The notes beneath the pieces were generated by a model. That model did not search any database. It was not told the origin of the DNA and saw only the letters and a program-made list of their open reading frames with translations. This document shows positions 37,225 through 45,263 of a stretch of 64,000 bases of DNA, piece after piece. Positions within the stretch are counted from its first letter, which is position 1, and every line of letters begins with the position of its first letter. The stretch is taken from positions 61,301 through 125,300 of the forward strand of contig JACRQF010000011.1 in the NCBI GenBank assembly GCA_016222825.1. The letters run 5' to 3'. A program made the position numbers and the translations under genes. This DNA comes from Verrucomicrobiota bacterium. GTDB lineage: Bacteria; Verrucomicrobiota; Verrucomicrobiia; CAIQCK01.

Positions 37225-39017
<1,793 letters not shown>

Positions 39018-39112
39018 ACGAAAAAAGTCGCGAGACGATAGCCTCCGCACGCAACGCGACGCAAGAGGTGTTTTCAAAAAGCGCCCCTGCCCTGCCGGCT
39101 GCGGCGCCGGCC

Positions 39113-39180
39113 TAGGGTTTCTTCTTAGCCGGTTTTCGAGAACTTCCCGCATGGCGCGGTCCGGCTTCCCCGCGTAGGTT
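39113..39180 (+). promoter_or_regulatory. TAGG-N7-CTTA box plus promoter
   Basis: TAGGGTTTCTTCTTA, then TGGCGC-N17-TAGGTT. Confidence 0.55.
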
Positions 39181-39202
39181 CCCGGTAACGAAACGAGAGT
39201 TT

Positions 39203-39397
39203 ATGAACACGAACAAATCACGAACGCGCGTCCTTTTCGTGAACGATCATCCGGCTTCGGAGGACGCGGCGGAATCTTCGGTGGTCGAGCCGGGCGCTTT
39301 GGAGCGCGTGTTTCTGTCGGCGGCGCTGATCTTCGCGATCTTCTTCCTGGTGGCGGTCGCGGTGTTTGGGGCGCCGGCGTCCTGGGGCGCGCGGTAG
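39203..39397 (+). CDS. Small single-TM membrane protein
   Basis: 64 aa with a hydrophobic stretch VFLSAALIFAIFFLVAVAVF. Has its own box-containing promoter. Confidence 0.6.
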   Translation: MNTNKSRTRVLFVNDHPASEDAAESSVVEPGALERVFLSAALIFAIFFLVAVAVFGAPASWGAR

Positions 39398-39398
39398 G

Positions 39399-39851
39399 CT
39401 ACTTGTCCTCCGGCGGCTCCGGCGGCAACATCGCCCGGCCGTCCGAGATCCGTCCCACCAACTCCTGCGGGAGCGGCAGCTCGCCCAGGTCGCTGGCCGG
39501 GTTGATCATCACGTCCATTCCTCGCGTCCCCAGCTCGAAGAAAAGCCACCGGCCCTTCATCTCACACACGCAGAACTTCTCCTTGAACGGCGCTTTCTTG
39601 AACAGTTCCTCCACGCGCTGATGCGACGTGAACAGCGGGATGAACTGTCCCTGCGGCGCGGTGAACGCAACGAACGGGATCTTCTCTCCCGCCTTCGGGG
39701 TGACTTCGCTGCCGGCCAGGCCGGGCTTGTCCGGTTGCAGGAAGAACAGCGACTGTTGCATGAGCAGCCGGAAGAACGCCGGCTGCGTGTCCGGCTCCGC
39801 CAGTGCTTTGCAAAACGCTGTCTCGAACTCGTTCAGTTGTTTCTTTTCCAT
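39399..39851 (-). CDS. SseB-family protein
   Basis: AFFRLL...FIPLFTS...DVMINP pattern of the SseB N-terminal domain. Confidence 0.75.
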   Translation of the reverse strand: MEKKQLNEFETAFCKALAEPDTQPAFFRLLMQQSLFFLQPDKPGLAGSEVTPKAGEKIPFVAFTAPQGQFIPLFTSHQRVEELFKKAPFKEKFCVCEMKGRWLFFELGTRGMDVMINPASDLGELPLPQELVGRISDGRAMLPPEPPEDK

Positions 39852-39929
39852 GTGTGTGTTCCGCTGGGCGACGGAAACTTGTAGCACATCCCGCGACGGA
39901 TTTCACGCGCGGCGTTTCAGACATGGCTC

Positions 39930-40038
39930 TGTAGCGGCGGTCTCTGACCGCCGAATCTTTGGCGAGAACCGACGGCGGTCAGAGACCGCCGCTACAGGTG
40001 GGTGCGGGAACCGACGGCGGTCAGAGACCGCCGCTACA
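39930..40038. repeat. GTAG-type REP cluster (TGTAGCGGCGGTCTCTGACCGCCG x3)
   Basis: One forward and two reverse copies at 39930, 39973 and 40015. Confidence 0.85.
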
Positions 40039-40067
40039 GGTCGGCAGCACCACTCGCGGCGTCCGCG

Positions 40068-40100
40068 AATCCAAAATCCAAAATCTAAAATCCAAAATCG
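40068..40100. repeat. Heptamer tandem repeat (AATCCAA)n
   Basis: AATCCAA AATCCAA AATCTAA AATCCAA AATCG. Confidence 0.85.
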
Positions 40101-40108
40101 CGCCGCCG

Positions 40109-41203
40109 CTACACGATTGGCGGCTGGAGCGTGATCGTTCTGGGGGCGGTGCTTCGCGTGCCGGCGCTGTTGCTCACCTCCGTGATGATCTTCACCACCT
40201 GCCCGACCTCGAACGGCCCCAGCGCGTTGCCGCTGGCGTCCAGCGGGGCGCTGTGCGCGAACCCTTCGTCCACGCCCACCACCTGCCACTTGACCAGCTT
40301 CGTCGTGGCGTGGTCGCCGCCGCCGGGGACGTAGGCCACCAGCACTTGCAGGCCCTCTTCGCCGCCTTGGGTGACGCTCGCGATCTCAATGGTGTCGGGC
40401 GCGGGCGTGCCGCCTTCGGCGGGAATGCCCCCGAGCGCCTCGTAAGCGTCGCTGCCCACATCGAACGTTGCCTTCGCGGCCTTATACCAACGCTTGTTCG
40501 CCTGGTCCACCGTCCGGTCCAGCGCGCGCAACGCCGCCCGCTTGGTGTCGAGCGCCTCCTGCGTGTCGCACATGTCCTTCACGAGGTCCGTGTAACCATC
40601 GAGCAGCCCCTTCAGCATCGCCGCCGTGAACGGCGTCCCCGCCACCGACCGCGTGATCGCCGGCTGCGGGGGCGTCATCGCCGCCAGCAGCGCGTTGGCC
40701 CGCACCCACAAGGGATACAAGCCCCGCGCGCGCGCCAGGATCGTCCCCTCCGTGCGCGGCACGCTCCGGTAAAGGTCGTCCATGTCCGCCATGAGCGCCT
40801 CGTTCTCGTCGAGCATCGCCTCGATGATCGCGGGCACCTTCGTGCCCAGCAGCTTCATCTTCAGCAACGCGTCCTGCACGACGCGATACGACGCGTCGGC
40901 CGTGTCCTGCGCCGTCGTGCGCTCCTGCACCAGCGGCTCGAACGCCGCGATGTAACCTTCCAGTTCCGTCGTGCCCGTCGAGCCGATCTTCAGCGTCGGG
41001 GTGTATTGCGTCCAGACCGGCAGCGTGAGCTGCGCCCGTTGTTTGGTGACTTCCCAGTATTCCATGTTGGCCTCCGAGTTCAGGGTGATGGGTTGCTGCG
41101 GCACTAAAAGCGGCTGCGGCGTCGCATGAGGCGGCTCATCGAACCGGTGGCCTTCATCCAGCCTCCAACCTTCATCGAGTCGAATGATACCTCCGCCGGG
41201 CAT
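40109..41203 (-). CDS. Hypothetical protein: helical region plus C-terminal beta-sandwich (FN3-like)
   Basis: Long ORF with typical codon usage. Alternative start at 41065 (MEYW) has a GGAGG RBS. Fold assignment is inference from residue pattern. Confidence 0.75.
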   Translation of the reverse strand: MPGGGIIRLDEGWRLDEGHRFDEPPHATPQPLLVPQQPITLNSEANMEYWEVTKQRAQLTLPVWTQYTPTLKIGSTGTTELEGYIAAFEPLVQERTTAQDTADASYRVVQDALLKMKLLGTKVPAIIEAMLDENEALMADMDDLYRSVPRTEGTILARARGLYPLWVRANALLAAMTPPQPAITRSVAGTPFTAAMLKGLLDGYTDLVKDMCDTQEALDTKRAALRALDRTVDQANKRWYKAAKATFDVGSDAYEALGGIPAEGGTPAPDTIEIASVTQGGEEGLQVLVAYVPGGGDHATTKLVKWQVVGVDEGFAHSAPLDASGNALGPFEVGQVVKIITEVSNSAGTRSTAPRTITLQPPIV

Positions 41204-41248
41204 AACAATGTCTTTCGTTGAAACATCTGCTGACACCTCTGCTTGACC

Positions 41249-41481
41249 TGTGGCGGCCGTCTCCGACCGCCGTCTGTCGCTGCAAACCCACATGTTTCAC
41301 ACGCTGCACGAAATGGCGATAAGCTGTAGCCGCCGACGTAAGGAGGCGGACGCCTTGCCATCCACAACCTTCCCGCCTCCTCACGTCGGCGGCTACGAAA
41401 CATGTGAAATAACCAAGCTAACAACGTTTCCGGTCGCCGGCCGTTATCGCAACCACTCGGCGGTCAGAGACCACCGCTACA
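41249..41481. repeat. Nested REP structure: 119-bp REPIN copy 2 (41293-41411) inside an inverted pair of GTAGCGGCGGTC-type REPs
   Basis: Arms at 41249-41272 and 41458-41481. The inner element is closely similar to 26457-26575. Confidence 0.8.
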
Positions 41482-41497
41482 GTGATTTCTACAGCAT

Positions 41498-41850
41498 CAA
41501 CGTCGAATACTGTAGCATCTTTTCACACTTCTGCAATGTCTTTTTTTGACCATCTAAAATCTTATCCGATTACATCCGGTCAATCTTCATCACTACGCTC
41601 TCAGTTTAACATCATGTAATACCAGTTTGCGCCACTGTAACCATTACAGCCATGCAAACTGACGCTACAGTATGACAACCTGATGTTACATATGGTCAAA
41701 CCGGTGAAACATCCTATCACGCCGGGATTACAGCACCATGCGCGGACGATACAGCAAAGCATACTGACCATACATCGTATCAAACCGGCAGATCATCACC
41801 GCATACTGACCCGATAGTATGGCTCCCGGACCTTAGAACTTCTCTCAAGG
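41498..41850. repeat. Degenerate 21-bp periodic array, inverted about an axis at ~41642
   Basis: About 10 units from 41641 (e.g. ccattacagccatgcaaactg, acgctacagtatgacaacctg, atgttacatatggtcaaaccg) and reverse-complement units to the left. Confidence 0.7.
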
Positions 41851-41877
41851 ACGTGACCATTTCATATCCCGCCGTTT

Positions 41878-42870
41878 TCATTTCGCCATCAGAGATTTCT
41901 CCAGCTCATCAAGCAGCCTCTGCGTCTTCTTCGTCTTTGGATGATCCTCGCCCAGCGACTTGCGCCTGCCATCCAGCGCCCGCCGCGCAAAGACCAGCGC
42001 CTCCGCTTCCCTATTCTGGTTCTTCACACATAGCGCCAGATTAAAACAGGACTCAAACAAGTCGGGATGCTCCGGCCCCAAGACGCGCTCGCGGCCAGCC
42101 AGGACGGCGCGGTGCTCCCGCTCGGCCTCGCCGTGCTTGCCTTGGGCTTGTAGTGCAGTAGCCAAGTTGTTGCGGCTGATCAGAGTCCTGGAATCCTCCG
42201 CCCCCAAGACGCGCTCGAAGATGGCCAGGACAGCGCGGTGTTCCTTCTCGGCCACGCCGTGCTCGCCTTGAGCATTCAGCGCAAGGGCCAAGCCCATGCG
42301 GCTGTCCAGCGTGTCGGGATGCTCCGGCCCCAGGACGCGCTCCTGCATCTTTGCGTTATTGCGATATTCTTCTTCGGCTTCCTTATGCTTCCCTTGGACA
42401 AATAGCACAGAGGCCAAGGTGATGCGGCTGCTCAGCGTGCTGGGATGTTCCGGGCCAAAGATGCGTTCCTTGATGGCCAAGACGGCGCGGCTCTCCCGCT
42501 CGGCCTCGACGTGCTTCTCTTGGGCTTTCAGCGCGTTGACCAGGTTGTTGCGGATGGCCAGCGTGCTAGGATGCTCCGGACCAACGATGCGTTGGTAGGC
42601 GTCTGTGATGGCGCGAAACTCCATCTCGGCCTGCGCATACTTGCCTTGGCCATATAACTTCTTCGCCCCATCGTTCCGAGTCTTCAGCGCGGCCAACTCC
42701 TCCTCCTGCGCGGCGCTGAGTTTGCTCTCTTGGGTGCGCGGCCTTTCCGCATCGCGACATCCGCTCCACAAGCCGGCGGAGAGCGCGAAGAGAAAGCAAA
42801 GAGAGAGCGTCGCGCGGAGGAAAACAAACCGCGTCGAGTGCGAGCCGCCATTCCCACAGATGCCGCTCAT
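41878..42870 (-). CDS. TPR-repeat (kinesin-light-chain type) putative lipoprotein
   Basis: Repeated 42-aa units ERVLGPEHPDTL.SR.NLA.AL..QGKH.EAE and a LWSGC lipobox-like motif. Confidence 0.88.
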   Translation of the reverse strand: MSGICGNGGSHSTRFVFLRATLSLCFLFALSAGLWSGCRDAERPRTQESKLSAAQEEELAALKTRNDGAKKLYGQGKYAQAEMEFRAITDAYQRIVGPEHPSTLAIRNNLVNALKAQEKHVEAERESRAVLAIKERIFGPEHPSTLSSRITLASVLFVQGKHKEAEEEYRNNAKMQERVLGPEHPDTLDSRMGLALALNAQGEHGVAEKEHRAVLAIFERVLGAEDSRTLISRNNLATALQAQGKHGEAEREHRAVLAGRERVLGPEHPDLFESCFNLALCVKNQNREAEALVFARRALDGRRKSLGEDHPKTKKTQRLLDELEKSLMAK

Positions 42871-42959
42871 GACCGCGCCGGTATAGCGCGTTCGCCGGCC
42901 GCGGCGCAAGCGCGAAAAGAATCGGCGGCGTGGTGGGGGCGCAACCGGGCACACGCACC

Positions 42960-43074
42960 GTAGCGCAGATTTCCAATCTGCTGTGTCGCCGACTTCCAGT
43001 CGGCAGACCGTTGGAGTTGCGCAGCGCCAGCGGGTTGGAAACCCGCGATACAGCAGACTGGAAGTCTGCGCTAC
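42960..43074. repeat. GTAGCGCAGA...TCTGCGCTAC REP/REPIN element
   Basis: Inverted arms GTAGCGCAGATTTCCAATCTGCTGT and ACAGCAGACTGGAAGTCTGCGCTAC with internal hairpins. Confidence 0.8.
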
Positions 43075-43478
43075 CGCGCTGGCCGTCCGCTACGGTGCGT
43101 GTGTCGAGTTGCGGCGGCGCGGTGGCGCGGCGGCGGTTGCGGGACTATGTTGGGCCGATGAAGACAGGATGCAGTTCCTGGGAAAGGTGACGCGATGAAT
43201 GAGCTACCACTGCAAGGAACCTGGCGGGGACCGAAACTGGAAATGTCGGGGGCGCCGGCCCTCTTGGCCGGCAAGCAGCCAGTCCGGCGCGGTCGCGGGG
43301 GGATGCCGCGCCGGGCGCGGGCCGGCTGGGGGCTGCGGGCGGGCCGGCTGGCGTTGTTGCGGAGGCTGGCCGCCTCGGCCCGGAGGCGGCACGGGTTGAA
43401 CCCGTTGCTGGATTGGGGCGGAAGGATCGGGGATTGACGGGAGCGGGCGCGAGTCGCGCGCGAGTCGCGATCTGTAAC

Positions 43479-43536
43479 GCGTAATGCGTAAGAGACACTG
43501 GCTGTCTTTCTACTTGCGCATTACGCAATTTTTTTG
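43479..43536 (+). terminator. Hairpin with T-tract (possibly bidirectional terminator)
   Basis: GCGTAATGCGTAAG...CTTGCGCATTACGC followed by AATTTTTTG. Confidence 0.5.
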
Positions 43537-43606
43537 CCTTGTAGCCGGAGATCCCGCGCTGACGCGCGCAGCGCCGCTCCTCCCCCGCCCCGCCGTTGCC
43601 GCGCCG

Positions 43607-43882
43607 TCACCCGACGGCGCGGCGTTCAATAGAGGGCAATCGGGGAGCAGGTCTTTTGGTTTGCTTGGTGCGCGCGACGATCTGTTCGCGCTGCGGGTGG
43701 CGGCAGAGCCGGTGAACGCCGAAGGCAACTTGGTAGCGGCAGCGCGCAGGGCCGGCGACGAGGCACCACGCCGCGTCGCCGCAGCTCCGCCCCTTGGCCC
43801 GGCAGATGTCCGGGTCTGGCAGGGATTGTATCGGGTGGAAGGATTGTAGTTGAACGCCGGACTGCCATGTCTTCGTGTTCAT
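43607..43882 (-). CDS. Small Cys4-His protein, paralog 5 (dispersed copy)
   Basis: LPDPDIC-x12-C-x7-CRY....G....CRHPQREQIVART, the same spacing as the 31-33 kb paralogs. Confidence 0.8.
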   Translation of the reverse strand: MNTKTWQSGVQLQSFHPIQSLPDPDICRAKGRSCGDAAWCLVAGPARCRYQVAFGVHRLCRHPQREQIVARTKQTKRPAPRLPSIERRAVG

Positions 43883-43915
43883 TGTTGGCTCGGTTCGCTG
43901 GAAAGATTTGCCAGC

Positions 43916-43982
43916 ACTGTAGGCCGGCGATACGCGGCTGTCTTGAGGGATTATTCTAATTTTCGCCTAGGTGTTCCGCCTA
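43916..43982 (-). promoter_or_regulatory. TAGG-N7-CCTA box plus promoter of paralog 5
   Basis: TAGGTGTTCCGCCTA (43968-43982), then minus-strand AAGACA-N17-TACAGT. Confidence 0.7.
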
Positions 43983-44075
43983 AGCGCCGGCGCGGATTTC
44001 AACCGCCCCGCCGCGCAAGCGGAAACATCCGGGGAGGCATTTGACTGCGGAGGCGGGAAGCCTAGCTTTGGAGCG

Positions 44076-44154
44076 AGGGGGCGCTGGCTTCCGGGCCGCG
44101 TCATCTCGGTCTAACCACTGTCAACGGGTTCCGGGGCCAGCTAGTGCCGGCGCC
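44076..44154 (+). ncRNA. Candidate small RNA 1 (of a tandem pair)
   Basis: TTGACT-N16-TAGCTT promoter, then AGGGGGCGCTGGCTTC...GGGGCCAG hairpin. Confidence 0.35.
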
Positions 44155-44216
44155 GGAATGCGCGGGCGCGAAGGAGACGCCTTGACCGCGGGGCCGGGCG
44201 TTCTAGGTTTGAAACA

Positions 44217-44291
44217 AGGGGGTGCTGGCTTCGGAGCCGCGAAACCTGTCAGACTCGTAGGAAGCGGCTCCGGAACCAGGAATGATTCACC
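44217..44291 (+). ncRNA. Candidate small RNA 2 (of a tandem pair)
   Basis: TTGACC-N16-TAGGTT promoter, then a 15/16-bp stem 44225-44240 / 44264-44279. Confidence 0.4.
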
Positions 44292-44309
44292 AGCAAAGGC
44301 CGGCGCGGC

Positions 44310-45263
44310 TCAGAATCTCCAGGCGATGGAGGCGCGCACGCGGAGGTCGGGCACGAGCGTGTCGCCGGTGCTGTGGATGTGGGCGGGCACGTCCACGGCG
44401 CCCAGGGCGCTGAGGCGGTTGTTGAAGGTGTAGGTGAGTTGCGGACCGAGGAAGACGATGGTTTCGGCGGTGTGGCCCATTTCCATGACGGCGCCGGGAG
44501 GCATCACCATGTCGCCCATCTGGTCCTGCCCCTTGGTTTCGCCGGAGCAGATGAGCTGCAAGGCCAGCGTGTGGTTCTCGTTGAGGAGCAGATAGTAGCC
44601 GGGGCCGGCCTGCCAGGAGAGGTCGTTGGCGAAGCGGTAGCCGAAGGCGCCCTCGGTGCGGATGCCGTATTGCGCGCTGGCGGTGCCCATGAAGCGATGC
44701 CAGCGTCCATAGACGCCCGTGCCGATGATGCCGTCAAAGGAGCCGGAGCCGAGCGCCAGGTCGTGGCCGCTGATGCCGGTGGCGAAGTCCGGCTCCTCGG
44801 GATTGAGATGGGCGGGGTCGCCGGTGGGGAACTTCACGCCGCCGATGAGGTTCCATCGGAAGGTGGAGTCCTCGTCGGCTTTCTCGAAGAGGAGATAGTT
44901 GCCCAGCAAGCAGATGTCGCCGAGGCCGCTCTCGTGCGCGGAGCCAGCGGCGTCGGAGCCGAAGTCCTTGTAGAGGTAGGGCACGTTGAGTTGGACGCCG
45001 ACGCGGCGGTTGAAGCGGTAGGCGGCGTAGAACTGGGTGTTGTAGCTGTGGAGATACTCGCCGTCGTTGGGCACGGTGCGGTTCTCGGCCTGGAGGGTGT
45101 TGAAGTAGGTGTATTGCTCGGCGACGCCCGCGTAGAAGCCGCGGTCGCCCGCCCCCTGCGCCTCGGAGGCGATGTAGATGGCGCAGAGATCGCAGGTCCG
45201 CGCGGGACCGGCAAGAAGCAAACTGACAAGGCACGCCACGACGCCGACGGTTCTTGTTTTCAT
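44310..45263 (-). CDS. Putative outer-membrane beta-barrel (MetA-pathway/transporter-like) with N-terminal CxxC
   Basis: Signal peptide then CDLC, GLGDI, GVKFPTG, LGSGSFD and C-terminal WRF. Confidence 0.75.
   Translation of the reverse strand: MKTRTVGVVACLVSLLLAGPARTCDLCAIYIASEAQGAGDRGFYAGVAEQYTYFNTLQAENRTVPNDGEYLHSYNTQFYAAYRFNRRVGVQLNVPYLYKDFGSDAAGSAHESGLGDICLLGNYLLFEKADEDSTFRWNLIGGVKFPTGDPAHLNPEEPDFATGISGHDLALGSGSFDGIIGTGVYGRWHRFMGTASAQYGIRTEGAFGYRFANDLSWQAGPGYYLLLNENHTLALQLICSGETKGQDQMGDMVMPPGAVMEMGHTAETIVFLGPQLTYTFNNRLSALGAVDVPAHIHSTGDTLVPDLRVRASIAWRF

Follow-up and report, generated by a model that had tools for sequence, protein, structure and literature searches.

A conserved two-armed array of 21-bp units upstream of a Verrucomicrobia-wide gene family: a candidate helically phased row of binding sites

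The MarA-type marbox is an asymmetric site of about 20 bp in which two conserved blocks lie one helical turn apart. Plasmid iterons and the parC/parH-type centromeres comprise runs of about ten phased repeats, which sometimes form two sets flanking a promoter and whose sequence is specific to the replicon. At the BvgA promoters, six dimers occupy a single face of the DNA at intervals of 22 bp, the last of them abutting the -35 element, and many weak BvgA sites act together at the Bordetella promoters Pptx and Pfha (PMC7250471). The motifs of the AraC family have been described as direct repeats of 21-bp periodicity (PMC3870299), and the GGGNATC heptanucleotide repeat arrays of Xanthomonas and Nostoc as intergenic, often present as inverted pairs and variable between loci (PMC4692102). 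The element described here lies in a window of 64,000 nucleotides (the whole stretch of DNA that was analysed) from a Verrucomicrobiota genome and consists of 21-bp units in two mirror-image arms. It is reminiscent of the BvgA promoters in its two-turn spacing (22 bp there and 21 bp here) and of the AraC/XylS operators in that a non-palindromic unit of two blocks is repeated at 21 bp. The limited full-text literature that was searched yielded no description of such 21-bp arrays.

The array and its immediate surroundings

The array lies in a 674-bp spacer between two minus-strand genes (Table 1), in which the GC content drops to 0.40-0.46 versus 0.63 for the genome. The wider context is one of chromosomal housekeeping genes, namely lepA, the signal peptidase gene lepB, Dps, GH57, the phosphoglucomutase gene pgm, rpe and ilvB, and no tRNA or tmRNA was found in the window. 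Autocorrelation of positions 41498-41850 gave a lag-21 identity of 0.425 (z 7.0) and further peaks at lags 42 (z 4.7) and 63 (z 4.6), to be read against a value of 3.1 for the 95th percentile of the best z in 300 dinucleotide shuffles. These were the top three lags; lag 7, the mark of a 7-bp unit, was not among them. The periodicity is strongest in the right arm (41641-41850; lag-21 identity 0.508, z 8.6) and weaker in the left part (41480-41640), with z values of 3.15 for lag 21 and 3.17 for lag 57. Stacking the right-arm units as 21-mers from 41641 yielded the plus-strand consensus ACgtTACAGcatggCAAACtG. A TACA[GT] motif is found six times in this arm, with all six occurrences in one phase, and none of 2000 shuffles placed more than two in phase. 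On the left side of the axis the units appear as reverse complements (CAGTTTGCGCCACTGTAA, CAGTTTAACATCATGTAA); two of these are clear, and five more, reaching back to about 41494, are faint.

The two-armed 21-bp array is thus genuine. Both the periodicity claimed in the first-pass annotation, at z 7-8.6 in comparison with shuffled sequence, and the mirror-image layout that it placed around 41635-41649 are borne out. Its ten in-phase right-arm units have the phase and consensus that it described, but the last two are barely recognisable. The minus-strand ORF that it pointed out likewise exists, with a Cys at about every seventh residue, but is not a gene. The heptad peptide that it offered as one reading was rejected: the GC3 of the ORF is 0.56 versus 0.88 in the gene, no conserved peptide was recovered (best tblastn E 0.11), and the corresponding array in a second genome of the same genus (G001) has stops in all six frames. 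TRF recovers just two copies at the array, which indicates that it is old and degenerate. Column conservation within it is not significantly uneven (p = 0.15), and no second copy of the array region was matched in its own genome or in 40 relatives. No insertion or deletion was seen within the array in the contigs of four DNA runs from one groundwater study, three of which provide an individual contig across it (41327-42143, 41327-42200 and 41327-42052).

Table 1. Coordinates of the array, its parts and the adjoining features (window numbering)
Feature	Coordinates	Strand	Remarks
Gene downstream of the array	40109..41203	-	364 aa; Verrucomicrobia-wide family without a Pfam entry (family B)
Region coding for the N-terminal extension	41066..41203	-	residues 1-46, RLDEGW repeats; present wherever the array is present
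Short leader	41204..41247	-	separates the insertion from the ATG at 41203; shared with the same-genus ortholog
REPIN-like insertion	41248..41482	.	outer arms 41248-41272 and 41458-41482
Proximal arm	41494..41640	-	about 7 units of opposite orientation, TTACAG...CAAACTG read towards the gene; the 2 next to the axis clear
Spurious ORF in the array	41601..41783	-	60 aa, Cys at about every 7th residue; a by-product of the repeat
Mirror-symmetry axis CTGTAA-CCA-TTACAG	41635..41649	.	kept in the same-genus ortholog
Distal arm (seen from the gene)	41641..41850	-	ten 21-bp units, the last two degenerate
Upstream neighbour, TPR_10/TPR_12 repeat protein	41878..42954	-	

The left border of the array is formed by an inserted palindromic element and not by unique DNA. 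The arms of this insertion belong to a REPIN-like family (CTGTAGCGGCGGTCTCTGACCGCCG ... CGGCGGTCAGAGACCGCCGCTACAG), an arm of which is present genome-wide in 103 copies at up to three mismatches, with the arms mostly paired about 20 nt apart; the insertion thereby displays the typical REP/REPIN feature of many near-identical dispersed hairpin copies. Nested inside the pair, at about 41289-41406, is a second multicopy palindrome with copies elsewhere in the genome and in relatives, at which the metagenome contig depth is 150-470 versus 5-10 in the flanks. Contig joints that skip 41272-41457 carry other letters between both sides, and are read as other genomic REPIN copies and not as alleles of this locus. 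The whole 235-bp insertion is missing at the orthologous site of G001, in which the array reaches the start codon and both the ATG and the approximately 45 bp before it are conserved. Since the insertion puts 235 bp between the array and the leader, and the A-tract of the unit has decayed to CAAAC in this genome, the element may be partly disabled here.

Other repetitive features are found close by. The REPIN-like family is represented also at 39929-40041, where a hairpin arm, CGGCGGTCAGAGACCGCCG, is flanked by CTACAG; this form usually occurs as inverted pairs and is present in relatives. The sole Rfam hit in 39000-45000 at E<=1, to MIR2629 (39930-40003), is a false positive on this REPIN. 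Just beyond the stop codon of the downstream gene is a 7-bp tandem repeat, AATCCAA, in 4.6 copies (40068-40099). The upstream TPR gene contains 126-bp internal repeats, and its paralogs adjoin other arrays.

The downstream gene family and the wider class of arrays

The downstream gene had been taken for an orphan, a claim refuted by the recovery of at least 249 homologs at E<=0.001. Among the 120 matches listed these are 57-84% identical to it, are labelled Verrucomicrobia where they are named, and fall into two length classes of 316-318 and about 360-369 aa; Atlas likewise returned solely unnamed Verrucomicrobiota clusters for the protein. In the AlphaFold model (mean pLDDT 80.8) residues 1-45 are disordered, long helices form a bundle, and the chain ends in an FN3 domain, which alone was matched in a Foldseek search of the PDB. 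No DNA-binding fold was detected in the protein by the model or by this search, and the locus gave no Pfam, NCBIfam or PHROG Rep hit. The N-terminal extension is composed of Trp/Leu-Asp-x-Gly repeats, which in other genera take the form of WDDGxTx heptads corresponding to 21-nt repeats in the DNA. Three family-B genes of this genome (41066-41203 of the window, C1:564765-565022 and C16:17075-17816) share an approximately 90% identical N-terminal peptide, GGIIRLDEGWRLDEG(H/R)(R/H)FDEPP, and that of the same-genus ortholog differs (RWDTPGAKWDQGLRWD). This suggests either homogenisation within the genome or a shared partner.

The periodic tracts that the first-pass annotation had proposed to look for beside homologous genes are indeed present. 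Immediately before the ortholog in G001 (L022) the lag-21 identity peaks at 0.60, and the tract there has the same axis, with the units GTTACAGCATGGCAAAAAGGT. In 11 of 14 loci from other Verrucomicrobia (named MAGs of Prosthecobacter, Brevifollis, Verrucomicrobiaceae and others), lag 21 scores highest among lags 15-29, and its identity reaches at least 0.53 in seven of the 14. In this sampling L045 was excluded, its gene start being off the contig, L043 contributed only 259 bp of upstream sequence, and L033 duplicates L022 and was counted once. When printed in lines of 21 bp anchored on the ATG, all nine distinct long-form loci (the window, L022, L034-L038, L044 and L046) display two arms, and six of them (L034-L038 and L044) share a common ATG-anchored register. 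Their common plan comprises a distal arm of 5-10 units of the CTTTTTS-N5-CTGYAA type, the axis, and a proximal arm of 4-9 units of the form TTRCAG-N5-SAAAAAG-N3, followed outside this genus by a leader of about 100 bp. In each locus both arms are present in the forms (A)AAAGC-N-TGCA and TTACA..CAAAAAG, and the TGCA/TTRCAG block is conserved across genera. The unit is non-palindromic, with two conserved blocks about 11 bp, or one helical turn, apart. Arm lengths differ between species and the unit counts of the two arms are unequal and variable, with 10 and 7 in the window, 5 and 9 in L022 and ranges of 5-8 and 4-6 in the remaining loci.

The short-form genes are devoid of the N-terminal extension; at six of their seven loci no array is present (L023-L025, L039, L041 and L042), and the seventh (L040) is borderline at 0.48. 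Array and N-terminal extension therefore co-occur across loci. The tract is a conserved partner of the gene, as had been surmised at the outset, and it is found upstream of the gene in all nine long-form loci. Judged by these sequence comparisons, the array is evolutionarily conserved upstream of long-form homologs across several genera. TPR_10/TPR_12 genes precede the array in four distinct other loci as well (L022, L036, L037 and L047), and a divergent LRR-Roc-COR gene is found upstream of it in L034, L035 and L038; both kinds of neighbour are NLR/STAND-like signalling types.

The array is one of a genome-wide class. A scan of the 6.6-Mb genome in 210-bp windows recovered 145 loci with a lag-21 identity of at least 0.46, whereas lags 20 and 22 yielded three loci apiece and lags 15, 18, 24 and 27 yielded 34-53. 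TRF reported 142 arrays of period 21, 37 of 42, 24 of 63, 14 of 84, two of 28 and none of 35, together with 178 of period 7 and 119 of period 14. Defining as strong those arrays in which the lag-21 identity is at least 0.6 in every 63-bp window over at least 147 bp gave about 55, of which 43 of 55 overlap no gene call, in a genome 87% covered by crude calls. Each array locus has its own unit sequence. Palindromic units are not the general rule, since a perfect inverted repeat whose arms are at least 6 nt long is present in just 19 of 56 consensus units, and that of the window's array is not among these. Lag-7 identity within arrays is 0.14-0.42, mostly near background. Column conservation is significantly uneven (p<0.01) in just eight of 56 arrays, and with 48 of 56 failing this threshold it was discarded as a class-wide sign of selection; the columns being mostly even, uniform decay of tandem copies is a possible history for the class.

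Arrays are strongly linked to two gene families. Families B and C together comprise 38 genes, of which 20 have an array within 600 bp upstream, versus 57 of 4436 other genes (Fisher 1e-26). Family B, to which the window gene was assigned by iterative BLAST, unites helical and FN3-like regions and has 21 members, nine of them with an array; family C, which is collagen-like with weak tail-fibre PHROG hits, has 17, of which 11 carry one. At family-C loci in six related genomes a 21-bp array gave the top lag, at an identity of at least 0.55, in seven of 20. Beside one family-C homolog of a related genome (L119, G003:C13) a crisp array of period 22 (identity 0.95) is present at about 733-860 of the locus. 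G001 contains three strong arrays in 393 kb, and G036, from another family, has no strong array in 200 kb. Arrays that precede other genes are labile: G001 has no counterpart of the pckG-upstream array in the pckG-ruvB spacer, and none was found in loci from four other same-genus genomes.

Candidate functions of the array

The reading that we favour, to which we give about even credence by analogy with the multi-site operators, is that the array might be a cis-regulatory row of helically phased binding sites abutting the promoter of the downstream gene. It would offer about 15-17 sites, one per 21 bp and hence per two helical turns, the two arms being oppositely oriented, and a putative sequence-specific DNA-binding protein would coat these sites on one face of the DNA. 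The bound protein would control the promoter that the proximal arm abuts, probably at the level of transcription. The last TTGCAG unit would itself serve as the -35 element of a promoter of the TTGCAG-N16-CAGCAT kind, about 90 bp before the ATG in other genera. A binding scaffold fits best with the two-turn phase, the non-palindromic unit of two blocks, the facing arms and the fixed register relative to the ATG; the unequal and variable arms, too, fit binding sites better than a hairpin.

Inspection by eye of the seven loci outside the genus recovered the TTGCAG or TTGCAA of the last unit, followed after 16 nt by CAGCAT, CAACAT or TAACAT, in five; this -35/-10 pair is missing from L036 and L037. 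A scan with the sigma-70 consensus found nothing in the window or in L038. A sigma-54 interpretation of the TTGCA element was rejected on a hand check, there being no GG at the required spacing.

The search for a binder by adjacency covered the GerE and AraC families, of which the genome encodes 13 and 17 genes respectively, none of them linked to the locus of the window. None of the 17 AraC-type genes lies next to an array, and two of the 13 GerE-type genes have one just downstream. In these two LuxR/GerE-type genes (L012:3553-4136, equivalent to C19:47052-47635 of this genome, and C27:68361-68941) the array starts about 130-150 bp past the HTH domain, and one of the two follows a CHASE3/HisKA_3 kinase; it is possible that they and their arrays are cognate regulator-array pairs. 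At another locus (L009:2456-3382; C9:226455-227381 of this genome) a protein of 308 aa with four tandem helix-turn-helix repeats and a Cys-rich tail is encoded divergently from a family-B gene, and an array separates them.

The two family-B genes whose N-terminal peptide (19-21 residues) is about 90% identical to that of the window gene carry quite different array units. As the units differ even before paralogous genes, either many binders or a reader independent of sequence would be needed. A broader proposal, which we regard as speculative and rather improbable, is that this family of Verrucomicrobia runs a hitherto undescribed control system based on a 21-bp DNA lattice, in which locus-specific, dyad-symmetric arrays would mark and switch dispersed FN3 and collagen-like (tail-fibre-like) genes that share an N-terminus of Trp-Asp-Gly repeats encoded by 21-nt repeats; the reader would be either a large co-evolving set of binders or a single one that recognises the period.

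An alternative to protein binding is that the array is transcribed as a long 5' leader whose arms, being mirror images and hence able to pair, form an imperfect hairpin that controls the stability or translation of the mRNA. The long structured RNA suggested by the first-pass annotation drew some encouragement from the fold of the window (z -3.7), from the minimum-energy structure of L038, in which the arms pair, and from a four-locus consensus fold that pairs the inner four to five units. In four of ten loci a strong -10-like box is present just beyond the distal arm, at its edge around -360; in L022 the sigma-70 scan picked out GTCACA-17-TATAAT, ahead of both arms, so that the array would be part of a transcribed leader. 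A small hairpin was also noticed by eye at about -58 to -40 in L038/L034, L046 and L044, where it retains its shape although the stems differ (GCGCT/GGCGC versus GTGTT/AACAC around a CGAA loop, and CATCAA/TTGATG in L044), and it would place at least the last 60 nt in RNA. However, the fold of L044 is unexceptional (z -1.25, with 25 of 200 shuffles as good) and that of L038 is weakly better (z -2.0), the covariation term is unfavourable (+2.1) with compensatory changes in three of 50 pairs, and the consensus fold pairs the motif blocks only, whereas the linkers are not complementary. Moreover, the outer units have no partner, since the arms are unequal and vary between genomes, and no Rfam family matched the array at E<=1. 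A hairpin leader therefore appears unlikely.

We give a similarly low likelihood to the idea that DNA shape alone is at work, in that units repeated every two turns would together bend or stiffen the DNA and so give order to the promoter region or the nucleoid, with no need of a dedicated sequence-specific binder. This would accommodate a period that is sharply 21 genome-wide though the units differ by locus, the mostly even columns, and the A5-7 tract that recurs in phase in every unit of most orthologs. Yet the best-kept arm here has lost the A-tract and kept TACAG and CAAAC-G, the TGCA/TTRCAG block is the same across genera, and long arrays show no enrichment of the periods 10-11 or 31-32 bp, by which DNA would be curved just as much.

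Slightly less plausible still is an origin of the arrays as functionless, fast-turnover minisatellites, generated by a lineage-specific bias of slippage or repair towards 21-bp steps and tolerated in long intergenic regions. Unequal exchange typically leaves higher-order periods such as those of 42, 63 and 84 bp seen here, many arrays of 7 and 14 bp accompany those of 21 bp, the array upstream of pckG is absent from G001, and 48 of 56 arrays show uniform column decay. Against this, the array of the window keeps its position, layout, register and motif from genus to genus even as gene identity drops to about 60%, it co-occurs with the long form of the gene, and arrays are tied strongly to two gene families both here and in relatives. 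The constancy of its length in the four runs of one study points the same way, as weak evidence, the runs having been seen as contigs.

Two inverted sets of tandem 21-22-bp units call to mind iterons, parC-type centromeres and the end repeats bound by transposases, but a plasmid-type iteron origin, a partition centromere or paired transposon ends are most improbable here, given a chromosomal housekeeping context, neighbours that are a TPR protein and a helical-bundle-plus-FN3 protein with no adjacent gene for Rep, ParR, ParA/ParM, another centromere-binding protein or a transposase, a position fixed at orthologous loci across genera, and dozens of 21-bp arrays per genome of which that of the window is itself single-copy.

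Implications and comparison with described systems

If the binding-site reading is true, the array, with about 15 sites in two arms, would be much larger than the cited multi-site operators with their 3-6 sites, and it would represent a whole class present dozens of times per genome, with a strict two-turn period and a unit of its own at each locus. The array-linked gene families are confined to Verrucomicrobia and highly conserved there, and so offer a handle on regulation in a phylum with little knowledge of promoters and regulators. The array would also allow the dependence of promoter output on helical phasing and on the number of sites to be examined in a natural example, and it flags an uncharacterised protein family that combines a helical bundle, an FN3 domain and an N-terminus of WDDG repeats. 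The expression of family B evidently matters enough for a 350-bp control region to be kept.

In its probable mode of action the array might work like a multi-site, helically phased operator, by analogy with the systems considered at the outset, each of which differs from it in specific respects. The BvgA promoters have 3-6 sites in one orientation, as opposed to the approximately 15-17 units in two mirror arms found here, and the unit of the array is not an inverted heptad. AraC-type operators have 2-4 sites, and no AraC-type gene is found near any array in this genome. Unlike the iterons and the parC/parH centromeres, the array is accompanied by no Rep or Par gene, is chromosomal and orthologously conserved, and is one of dozens. 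The GGGNATC heptanucleotide arrays are distinguished by their repeat, since the array here has a period of 21 with no 7-bp substructure and its units are not G-rich quadruplex formers. REP and REPIN elements are palindromic, intergenic and abundant, whereas the array is single-copy, periodic and conserved in position, and is not a dispersed identical hairpin. As no defining regulator was found, we do not file it under any of these named systems. In conclusion, the array is genuine, conserved and of unusual size, and is a member of a class linked to uncharacterised gene families of Verrucomicrobia; the geometry of multiple phased sites to which its probable mechanism would belong is already known.
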